64,000 nucleotides of DNA, from NCBI RefSeq assembly GCF_003018115.1, contig NZ_CP027457.1; one strand, written 5' to 3'. Made by a program: the position numbers and the translations under genes. Every line of letters starts with the position of its first letter. Within the stretch, counting starts at the first letter, position 1. Below the pieces are notes generated by a model. It did not search any database and was not told where the DNA came from. It worked only from the letters and a program-made list of their open reading frames with translations. Below are positions 16,103 to 17,531 of the stretch, piece after piece. This DNA comes from Escherichia coli. GTDB taxonomy: Bacteria; Pseudomonadota; Gammaproteobacteria; Enterobacterales; Enterobacteriaceae.

Positions 16103-17104
16103 TTAAAATAGCATTTGAGTCAAATAGCCCATTAAGATAGCCATACCTAAGATAACCGTCAGGAATGCAACTATCATCGGTATTCTGAACATTGATTTAA
16201 GTAATATCACTTCCGTCAGGCTTGCGCCCGCACTACCGATGATTAATGCCATTAATGCTCCCAGACCCATTCCTTTTGTCATCAAAACAGATGCCAGAGG
16301 GATAACTGCCTCTGCCCGGATATACAGCGGAATACCGATAACGGCGCTCAATGGGATGGCGAAGGGATTATCTGTCCCTGCATGAGCGGCAATCCATGCA
16401 GAGGGAATAAAGCCATAAATAAAAGAGCCTATTAATACCCCTAACAAAAGATATGGCAGTACATCTTTAAACTGTTGCAACGCATCTTTGGTGGCTAGTT
16501 TTATGGGATTAATACTTACCACAGCTTTGGTACTGCAACAGTTAACGACGGGTTTCTCAATGGCTTTAGCCACTGGATTACAGCAACTCACTTTTATTGG
16601 CGTATATGTCGTCCCCGGCGAAGTTTTGGCTGGAGTACAACAACTTGTTGATGAGCTTTTACTGGCAATGATATGACGTTCAAACCCCAGAGAATCCAGG
16701 ATAATACTGGCAAGTACGGAGACGCCGGCGGCGATAATCGCGTACAACAAGGTAACTTTCCAGCCAAAGGTCACCCACATTAGTCCGACGATAATGGGAT
16801 TAAGTAACGGAGAAACAAATAAAAAAGTGAGAGTCGGACCGAACCCAGCTTTCGCTGACAACAATCCACGTAACATGGGTATTGTCGAGCAACTACAGAA
16901 CGGGGTAACGGCTCCCAACAGAGCAGCCAGGAGATAGCCTCTCCCTTTTCTGGCCCCCATCATCTGCTGGATTTTATGGTCTGGCACCTTTTGTCTTATC
17001 AGGCTGACACCGGCACTAATCACTATAAACAGCAAAGAAAGCTCGACGGCGAGAAACACAAACATCTCTGCGGCATCTTGCAGCATCGCAAGCCAACTAC
17101 TCAT
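16103..17104 (-). CDS. DUF318/ArsP-like permease with conserved TPFCSCS motif and a cytoplasmic loop carrying three vicinal Cys-Cys pairs (333 aa from MSSWLAML)
   Basis: Motif GAVTPFCSCSTIP; loop TSCCTPAK...VSCCNPVAK...VNCCSTKA; GAGG Shine-Dalgarno 6 nt before the second ATG. Confidence 0.6.
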   Translation of the reverse strand: MSSWLAMLQDAAEMFVFLAVELSLLFIVISAGVSLIRQKVPDHKIQQMMGARKGRGYLLAALLGAVTPFCSCSTIPMLRGLLSAKAGFGPTLTFLFVSPLLNPIIVGLMWVTFGWKVTLLYAIIAAGVSVLASIILDSLGFERHIIASKSSSTSCCTPAKTSPGTTYTPIKVSCCNPVAKAIEKPVVNCCSTKAVVSINPIKLATKDALQQFKDVLPYLLLGVLIGSFIYGFIPSAWIAAHAGTDNPFAIPLSAVIGIPLYIRAEAVIPLASVLMTKGMGLGALMALIIGSAGASLTEVILLKSMFRIPMIVAFLTVILGMAILMGYLTQMLF

Positions 17105-17210
17105 ACATAACCTCATTGAATAAATCTATATTTCCAGAATAATCGAAATGAAATTCAGATCAAGATATTTCTGGTATTATCGAAATATCAACCAGACAGA
17201 GGGGTGTCAT

Positions 17211-17531
17211 ATGCAGTTAGAAGAAGTCGCTAAAGCGCTGAAAGAGCTAGGTCACCCGACCCGTTTGTTCATATTTAAACATCTTGTCAAAGCAGGGGAA
17301 CAAGGGTTGCCGGTCGGTGAGTTGCAAAAGCAGCTTGGGATACCTGGCTCCACACTCAGCCACCATATATCAGCACTGGTATCGGTAGGACTGGTCAAAC
17401 AAAACCGTGAGAGTCGGACGCTGATGTGTGTTTCGCAATACGCAATGCTGGAAGCGATAATTGAATTCTTACGCGAGGAGTGCTGCGTAAATAGCAAAAC
17501 ACTTGGCGAAGGGGCCACGAAGAACAAATAA
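17211..17531 (+). CDS. ArsR/SmtB-family HTH regulator with C-terminal vicinal cysteines (106 aa from MQLEEVAKAL)
   Basis: ArsR-type HTH (LPVGELQKQLGIPGSTLSHHISALVSVGLV); Cys residues at ...LMCVSQ... and ...EECCVN...; divergent from the permease gene. Confidence 0.6.
   Translation: MQLEEVAKALKELGHPTRLFIFKHLVKAGEQGLPVGELQKQLGIPGSTLSHHISALVSVGLVKQNRESRTLMCVSQYAMLEAIIEFLREECCVNSKTLGEGATKNK

Follow-up and report, generated by a model that had tools for sequence, protein, structure and literature searches.

Arsenic resistance is usually studied with Escherichia coli as the host, and in the textbook picture this species carries only the arsRBC operon, which handles inorganic arsenic. What, then, is a second regulator with a second permease doing directly beside that operon? 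The question is raised by a 64,000-nucleotide stretch of an E. coli chromosome (contig NZ_CP027457.1; here called the window), in which a gene for an ArsP_1-family permease (16103-17104, minus strand) stands divergently to a gene for a repressor of the ArsR/SmtB family (17211-17531, plus strand). An earlier note on this DNA, made from the letters alone, had seen in this two-gene cassette a candidate organoarsenical branch alongside the inorganic As(III) branch of arsRBC. Our computational analysis supports that proposal because the regulator is, by sequence comparison, an ortholog of SpArsR, the published repressor of arsP that is selective for methylarsenite [MAs(III)], with the same three cysteines and a conserved operator. 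On balance, we think it probable that the cassette provides self-contained, inducible resistance to trivalent organoarsenicals, namely methylarsenite and probably trivalent roxarsone and phenylarsenite.

The regulator and its cysteines

The regulator is a winged helix-turn-helix protein of the ArsR/SmtB family (Pfam HTH_20, E = 4.5e-14; HTH_5, E = 2.4e-6), and it scores 60.7 bits against the NCBIfam model HTH_metalloreg (NF033788), for which the cut-off is 55. When aligned with the neighboring ArsR, it shows GLPVGELQ in place of ELCVCDLC, as the earlier note had said, and thus lacks the type-1 CVCDLC site of the R773 and E. coli ArsR proteins. Its cysteines lie farther along the chain, with Cys73 (17427-17429) in the motif LMCVSQ (17421-17438, plus strand) and the vicinal pair Cys91-Cys92 (17481-17486) in EECCVN (17475-17492, plus strand). 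The best match in the PDB is AfArsR (6J05; E = 2.5e-10), where EECC falls in register with the ENCC that contains Cys95-Cys96. The equivalent of AfArsR Cys102 is absent, as the tail VNSKTLGEGATKNK has no cysteine, and the type-2 three-coordinate site is consequently not present. The weaker matches in these searches of the PDB and NCBIfam include BigR and YgaV.

A closer relative is SpArsR from Shewanella putrefaciens 200. Two published accounts (PMC11868830, PMC13236881) describe it as an AfArsR-like protein without Cys102 that binds MAs(III) via Cys101-Cys102 and that responds to MAs(III), not to As(III). Its gene is arsR Sput200_1227, next to arsP Sput200_1226, and a biosensor construct is printed in PMC12124457. 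We recovered the SpArsR sequence from the text of that biosensor supplement, where conversion from PDF had dropped two bases, and restored the frame using an 88%-identical ortholog from Shewanella xiamenensis; the published Cys101-Cys102 numbering fits the restored protein. The E. coli regulator is 57.6% identical to SpArsR over 92 residues (E = 7e-41), compared to 36% for AfArsR in the same comparison, and the unrepaired part of SpArsR (78 amino acids that include all three cysteines) gives 54% identity by itself (E = 1e-29). Cys83, Cys101, and Cys102 of SpArsR correspond to Cys73, Cys91, and Cys92 of the regulator. The regulator therefore has what sets the SpArsR type apart: its C-terminal helix ends in a vicinal cysteine pair, and it has neither the Cys102 ligand of AfArsR nor a type-1 CVC. 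A likeness to atypical ArsR sensors with C-terminal cysteines had been predicted from the CC pair, and it is borne out by the alignment of that pair with both AfArsR Cys95-Cys96 and SpArsR Cys101-Cys102. We regard the orthology to SpArsR as the decisive evidence for an organoarsenical function.

These cysteines are also conserved across species. Among 62 regulators encoded beside permease orthologs in other species, all 62 keep Cys91-Cys92 and 59 keep Cys73. About a quarter of the orthologous regulators have an extra cysteine five residues past the pair, near the position of AfArsR Cys102.

Operator palindromes in the divergent promoter region

The intergenic region between the two genes is 106 bp long and contains two copies of a 20-nucleotide palindrome, ATTTC-N10-GAAAT, at 17130-17149 and 17167-17186. 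Exact matches to this pattern occur nowhere else in the window, against a chance expectation of 0.12 for the whole 64 kb. Operator-like palindrome 1 (ATTTCCAGAATAATCGAAAT, 17130-17149) is within a 22-nucleotide direct repeat and overlaps the spacer and -10 element of a promoter-like site that is directed toward the regulator gene. Operator-like palindrome 2, taken at its full extent (GATATTTC-N10-GAAATATC, 17164-17189), overlaps a promoter-like site facing the permease gene. There is thus one promoter-like pair of hexamers per palindrome copy, each directed at one gene, but because such pairs are no more common here than in shuffled sequence, the hexamer matches alone are weak evidence for promoters.

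Better evidence comes from other genomes. The 21 nucleotides at 17164-17184 recur without a change in the promoter fragment of S. putrefaciens arsP that is controlled by SpArsR in the biosensor (PMC12124457). In other species, the palindrome is found with at most two mismatches, and usually twice, in 48 of 49 divergent regulator-permease intergenic regions, with a density of 9.5 per kb in those regions versus 0.61 per kb in their flanks. As judged by comparing sites, this identity and this conservation point to a DNA target shared with SpArsR.

The permease and its cysteine-rich loop

Profile searches place the permease in Pfam ArsP_1 (PF03773, E = 1.5e-52), in agreement with its earlier assignment to the ArsP/DUF318 family. 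The match is full length for this family (TCDB 2.A.119), running from residue 13 to residue 334 of the 337-amino-acid open reading frame (ORF) and from position 3 to position 293 of the 294 in the model. Lower scores were obtained against the models for SO_0444 Cu/Zn efflux proteins (NF033936; 106.7 bits, cut-off 300) and SaoE (NF040736; 84.6 bits, cut-off 325), and these curated cut-offs rule out membership in either group. Since an ArsP-type protein of Shewanella and an ArsP-like protein of Helicobacter show the same pattern of subthreshold scores, the scores reflect similarity at the level of the family.

An AlphaFold2 model built on a 16-sequence alignment (mean predicted local distance difference test score [pLDDT], 83.9) contains two repeats of four helices, the 4+4 topology described for ArsP_1-type permeases (PMC7176098). 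In the model, the CxC motif falls in the second of the membrane helices. This motif, TPFCSCS (16886-16906, minus strand; residues 67 to 73), is invariant in the permease alignment. The model breaks the second helix at residues 67 to 70 (TPFC), between helical segments 55-66 and 71-83, so that Cys70 and Cys72 would sit at a helix interruption, a feature that often creates a binding site. The earlier note had taken TPFCSCS to be a hallmark of organoarsenical efflux by ArsP, a claim that did not survive, as CxC is a family-wide motif that is also found in SO_0444 Cu/Zn exporters, in SaoE, and in K-12 YraQ (CTCC at the same position). ArsP homologs encoded in ars operons all have C(S/T)C, and tPF precedes it in one of their two clusters (PMC4435449). 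A PDB sequence search with the permease found no relative, and a Foldseek search of the PDB with the model returned nothing better than E = 0.5; the fold thus lacks a solved representative that could help with orientation.

Between helices 4 and 5 lies a previously unstudied central loop of 66 amino acids (residues 140 to 205; 16490-16687, minus strand) with three Cys-Cys pairs, in the motifs TSCCTPAK (residues 153 to 160; 16625-16648), VSCCNPVAK (residues 172 to 180; 16565-16591), and VNCCSTKA (residues 187 to 194; 16523-16546), all on the minus strand. All six loop cysteines are paired into dipeptides, an outcome seen in 0.05% of 200,000 shuffles of the loop (P = 0.0005), and the pairs are therefore not an effect of composition. 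They had been described as three near-repeats, and of that description the pairs stand and the repeat does not: Tandem Repeats Finder detected no DNA repeat in 16100-17550, and the three motifs are alike in composition only. Residues 151 to 194, which include all three pairs, have pLDDT values below 50 and are predicted to be disordered.

The number of Cys-Cys pairs in homologous loops ranges from 0 to 7, with 3 in the E. coli chromosomal protein and 4 in a plasmid paralog described below. Among 93 full-length representatives, the closer homologs (about 40% identity or more) mostly have long loops rich in Ser, Thr, Pro, Ala, and Lys with one to seven pairs, and the distant ones have short loops without cysteine. 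The loop appears to be conserved in composition rather than in sequence. Counting by the positive-inside rule did not decide on which side of the membrane it lies. Throughout the family, helices 1 and 2 are joined by a strongly basic loop, a feature that by this rule would put the central loop outside, but the cysteines, together with the His-rich N-terminal tails of some relatives, suggest the cytoplasm. Such tails, 70 to 80 residues long, are present in four representative proteins (P0160, P0176, P0184, and P0186). Another representative, P0163, has an N-terminal MerT/MerC-like CC membrane hairpin and a CC-rich linker, and in P0238 an ArsG-like N-terminal domain is fused to the permease.

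Relatives on plasmids and in other species

The cassette has a stand-alone paralog on plasmids. On a ColV plasmid, a 377-amino-acid permease with four CC pairs and a near-identical regulator are encoded between a Tn3-family transposase gene and IS1, and on another plasmid the paralog is beside IS26 and aph(3')-IIa. In PLSDB, 997 plasmids match the permease, 630 of them at 60 to 80% identity; 639 of the 997 are conjugative, and the matches are mainly from Escherichia, Salmonella, Citrobacter, and Klebsiella. The plasmid paralog (345 to 377 amino acids, four CC pairs) occurs on ColV, IncF, IncC, and other plasmids, flanked by Tn3-family elements, IS1, IS26, or ISL3, and many of the listed isolates came from chicken, turkey, duck, or pig.

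In ArsD, vicinal Cys-Cys pairs bind trivalent metalloid and pass it to the ArsAB pump. By analogy, we tentatively put forward a joint proposal about the loop and the plasmids, which we hold to be possible rather than probable: the Cys-Cys loop may be a metallochaperone built into the pump, in which each pair would be one complete two-thiol site for a trivalent organoarsenical, with the chemistry of the CC pair in the sensor, and the number of pairs would set the capture capacity, and the plasmid paralog may be an unrecognized organoarsenical-resistance determinant carried by several hundred conjugative enterobacterial plasmids.

We also examined 80 species-level genomes, mostly of marine Gammaproteobacteria, with permeases at 47 to 56% identity. 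The regulator is beside the permease in 61 of the 80 loci, and all-against-all clustering of neighbors in these loci found no recurrent partner except the regulator. A scan with verified seeds, including acr3, arsJ, and aio genes, found ars genes within 8 kb in only 4 of the 80, in three different arrangements. In Aeromonas tecta, the cassette is part of an arsR-arsD-arsA-gapdh-arsJ-acr3-arsC island; in two Endozoicomonas species, the order is acr3-arsD-arsA-permease-regulator, all in one direction; and in Halomonas, the cassette lies between gapdh-arsJ and aioBA. The island of Halomonas sp. ALS9 (4025-17020 of locus L097) has an ArsK-like major facilitator superfamily gene beside gapdh-arsJ and the arsenite oxidase genes aioBA on the other side, followed farther on by a second ArsP_1 permease gene, an extracytoplasmic function sigma factor gene, arsC, and acr3. 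A Campylobacter homolog is located among housekeeping genes.

Citrobacter has the cassette after arsRDABC in a prophage. This block is collinear with that of E. coli at 78.6% identity and thus represents the same ancestral arrangement, so we rejected it as an independent juxtaposition. It is cargo of a lambdoid prophage (loci L015 to L017, 2230-8092), between DnaT/lambda P-like replication genes and dinI, rusA, and lysis genes. Regulators ending in QEECCAGVRIAHEPEPL (one residue off in two loci) are found in Salinicola, Nitrincola, Pseudomonas, Sphingopyxis, and Acinetobacter, and one is also encoded on an IncC plasmid beside an ISL3 transposase gene. Such a distribution suggests that a second version of the cassette (48% identity) has recently spread by horizontal transfer.

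Proposed mechanism and alternative explanations

We propose a model in which a repressor dimer would sit on the two palindromes that overlap the divergent promoters, keeping its own gene and the permease gene off. A trivalent organoarsenical, for which two thiol ligands suffice, would bind Cys91-Cys92 at the end of the dimerization helix and bring the repressor off the DNA. The eight-helix permease would then export the compound, which Cys70-x-Cys72 at the helix break would bind in transport. The disordered loop with its three pairs would probably serve as a thiol tether, capturing the substrate and passing it to the membrane site much as ArsD does. Two features expected of a functional ArsP, location among arsenic genes or control by an arsenical-sensing regulator, are both seen here, since the cassette abuts arsRBC and its regulator is orthologous to SpArsR.

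Several observations weigh against this model. An identity of 58% to SpArsR does not guarantee equal ligand selectivity, and a purely two-coordinate site leaves the near invariance of Cys73 unexplained. The C-terminal helices of ArsR/SmtB dimers are antiparallel, and Cys73 of one subunit could for that reason lie near Cys91'-Cys92' of the other. The permease is only 33% identical to the probable Helicobacter ortholog of ArsP. Its family is functionally mixed, with Cu/Zn exporters among the Shewanella relatives, and at about 35% identity there are relatives with the His-rich tails typical of divalent-metal transporters and one with a MerT/MerC-like hairpin; such sequences make it clear that members of the ArsP_1 family have become adapted to several thiophilic or borderline substrates. 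Most orthologous cassettes (76 of the 80 species-level loci) have no ars neighbor, and the plasmid copies likewise stand alone. This lack of linkage is compatible with a stand-alone defense against a diffusible arsenical antibiotic and equally with another substrate.

One such alternative is a general efflux cassette for soft metals (Hg, Cd, Cu(I), Ag, Zn, or similar), with the CC pairs and CxC binding a thiophilic cation and the position beside ars explained by the clustering of metal-resistance genes. The mixed family, the tails and hairpin of the relatives, and the loci without ars neighbors all fit this idea, as do the CSC motif shared with the metal exporters of the family, the importance of a Shewanella DUF318 gene beside zntR under zinc stress, and the fact that the best NCBIfam similarity is to SO_0444 and SaoE. 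Those scores are nevertheless far under their cut-offs (107 versus 300 and 85 versus 325), just as they are for Shewanella ArsP-type and Helicobacter proteins, and the cognate regulator is orthologous to a repressor published as selective for MAs(III), with the same operator. The presence of 4 of 80 loci in ars islands is also well above the fraction of a percent that a random gene would show, a baseline that was estimated rather than computed. We therefore consider soft-metal efflux rather unlikely.

It is likewise improbable, in our judgment, that the cassette is a second branch for inorganic As(III) or Sb(III), in which Cys73 of one subunit and Cys91-Cys92 of the other would together make up a three-coordinate site, with the permease exporting arsenite or antimonite as a backup to ArsB. 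Such a site would make sense of the near-invariant Cys73 and of the extra cysteine that about a quarter of the orthologs have near the AfArsR Cys102 position, and the tight linkage to arsRBC in Escherichia and to arsRDABC in Citrobacter would suit an inorganic substrate. SpArsR has the same three cysteines, yet it reportedly gives no response to As(III); PMC6205960 reports that Campylobacter jejuni ArsP does not extrude inorganic arsenite, and a second arsenite pump beside arsB would be redundant. Least likely of all, and in our view very unlikely, is a thiol or redox stress module whose CC pairs sense or buffer oxidants and electrophiles, or a decaying remnant with no current function in E. 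coli. Several ArsR/SmtB members do sense persulfide or peroxide by means of cysteines, and BigR and YgaV appear among the weaker matches; in addition, 59% of complete E. coli genomes lack the cassette, with only a scar left in K-12. But both genes are intact, they are 95 to 99% conserved in more than 2,200 genomes, and the operators are conserved as well. Spread on conjugative plasmids argues for a selectable function, and the closest characterized relatives are arsenic sensors.

Genomic context and distribution in E. coli

With presence counted at a query coverage of at least 80%, the cassette occupies this chromosomal site in 2,224 of 5,426 complete E. coli genomes (about 41%), mostly at 95 to 99% identity. 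Between arsC and yhiS, no gene is annotated in K-12 MG1655, as the earlier note had said. The strain does retain, in decayed form, 62 bp from the 3' end of the regulator gene, followed by a repetitive extragenic palindromic (REP) element, and in another strain RefSeq annotates the same remnant as a pseudogene. This remnant shows that K-12 and K-12-like strains lost the cassette and kept a scar. The description of the cassette as accessory therefore holds in the sense of variable presence; its absence from K-12-like strains reflects loss. Most carriers have a REP element where the regulator gene ends, and this recodes the tail to ...SKIA, giving a protein of 98 amino acids. The allele in the window (17499-17551) has no REP element, encodes 106 amino acids, and resembles the plasmid alleles.

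Both ORFs and all of the motifs quoted before our analysis were confirmed at their places in the sequence. The permease ORF (16103-17116) would encode 337 amino acids, but the probable true start is the ATG at 17104 (MSSW...), with a GAGG box 6 nucleotides upstream, giving 333 amino acids. For the regulator, the ORF (17148-17531) would encode 127 amino acids, and the probable true start is the ATG at 17211 (MQLEEV...), preceded by GAGGGG, giving 106. In near-identical strains, RefSeq has both genes begin at these ATGs and gives them the generic names "permease" and "ArsR/SmtB family transcription factor."

The gene order in this part of the window is chuS, dctR, slp, yhiS, permease gene, regulator gene, arsC, arsB, and arsR. 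The arsRBC operon (17552-19687, minus strand) directly adjoins the cassette, as previously noted, with arsC at 17552-17977, arsB at 17990-19279, and arsR at 19334-19687; each product scores above its NCBIfam cut-off, and the order is identical in strains EC1515 and M3. Only 20 bp separate the end of the cassette from arsC. Between these convergent genes is a G+C-rich, terminator-like hairpin for arsC (17529-17549, minus strand), with an 8-pair stem followed by a T-rich tail; most E. coli have the REP element at this place instead.

On the other side of the cassette, yhiS is an intact 407-amino-acid ORF (14300-15523, minus strand) with no NCBIfam match; in K-12 the gene is interrupted by IS5, and in EC1515, M3, and 1919D3 it is annotated by RefSeq as frameshifted. 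Directly past dctR-slp are chuS, for heme oxygenase (11712-12740), and the chu heme-uptake genes. Strain M3 has yhiD-hdeBA-hdeD-gadE on the chu side, and the neighboring island thus differs between the two strains. Upstream of arsR is a gene for a TnpB-family RNA-guided endonuclease (20312-21532, minus strand; 390 bits on NF040570), and none is annotated at the corresponding spot in EC1515, the closest complete genome.

Significance

About 41% of complete E. coli genomes thus have a second, separately regulated cassette beyond arsRBC that, by orthology, is expected to detect and export methylarsenite as well as arsenical feed additives in their trivalent forms. Methylarsenite is a natural antibiotic made by other microbes. 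In the literature that we searched, there was no paper on the genes of the E. coli or plasmid cassette. The plasmid paralog provides a possible link between organoarsenical use and the coselection of resistance and virulence plasmids. If that link holds, arsenical feed additives could have coselected plasmids for virulence and antibiotic resistance, including ColV and multidrug plasmids, many of them from poultry and livestock. The Cys-Cys loop, for its part, is a simple model in which to study how a thiol-bound substrate is recruited by a secondary transporter. These two aspects, the loop and the plasmid spread, are the parts most worth following up, and K-12 and its ars deletions, the usual assay strains, lack the cassette and so provide a clean background.

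Comparison with known systems

By the sequence tests used here, the cassette is a member of the SpArsR-arsP type, and its function in E. coli is a prediction from that membership. It shares with Sput200_1227/Sput200_1226 the fold and length class of the regulator, the three cysteines, an ArsP_1-family neighbor, and the operator palindrome. The E. coli regulator lacks the 10-residue N-terminal extension of SpArsR, the permease is only 48% identical to its nearest Shewanella proxy, encoded beside the closest SpArsR relative in S. xiamenensis, and the loops differ in length and in number of CC pairs. The E. coli cassette also differs from the Shewanella system in that it abuts arsRBC.

To C. jejuni ArsP (TC 2.A.119), the cassette appears to be more distantly related. 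That protein is an efflux permease for methylarsenite and trivalent roxarsone, and either permease would broaden resistance from inorganic to organic arsenic. Both permeases belong to the same Pfam family and have C(S/T)C preceded by tPF, but the loop of the probable epsilonproteobacterial ortholog, about 33% identical to the E. coli permease, has one CC pair or none. The C. jejuni operon was published as arsP-arsR-arsC-acr3 (PMC4435449), and in the proxy from Helicobacter pullorum the next gene after that of the permease encodes an ArsR with an LCVCDL site, in contrast to the divergent pair and C-terminal CC sensor of E. coli.

Other comparisons hold for single parts of the cassette. In AfArsR of Acidithiobacillus ferrooxidans (6J05), a type-2 As(III) sensor, the C-terminal helix likewise ends in a vicinal pair, which aligns residue for residue with that of the E. 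coli regulator, but AfArsR Cys102 has no counterpart in the E. coli protein, in which Cys73 is conserved instead. SO_0444 (NF033936) and SaoE (NF040736) share the Pfam family and the CSC motif of the permease, yet they are partnered by ZntR-type regulators or an SAO locus, unlike the E. coli cassette. ArsD may be a functional analog of the loop in that both have vicinal Cys-Cys pairs. ArsD, however, is a folded protein in its own right that works for the ArsA ATPase, and the E. coli pairs are in the predicted disordered loop of the permease itself.

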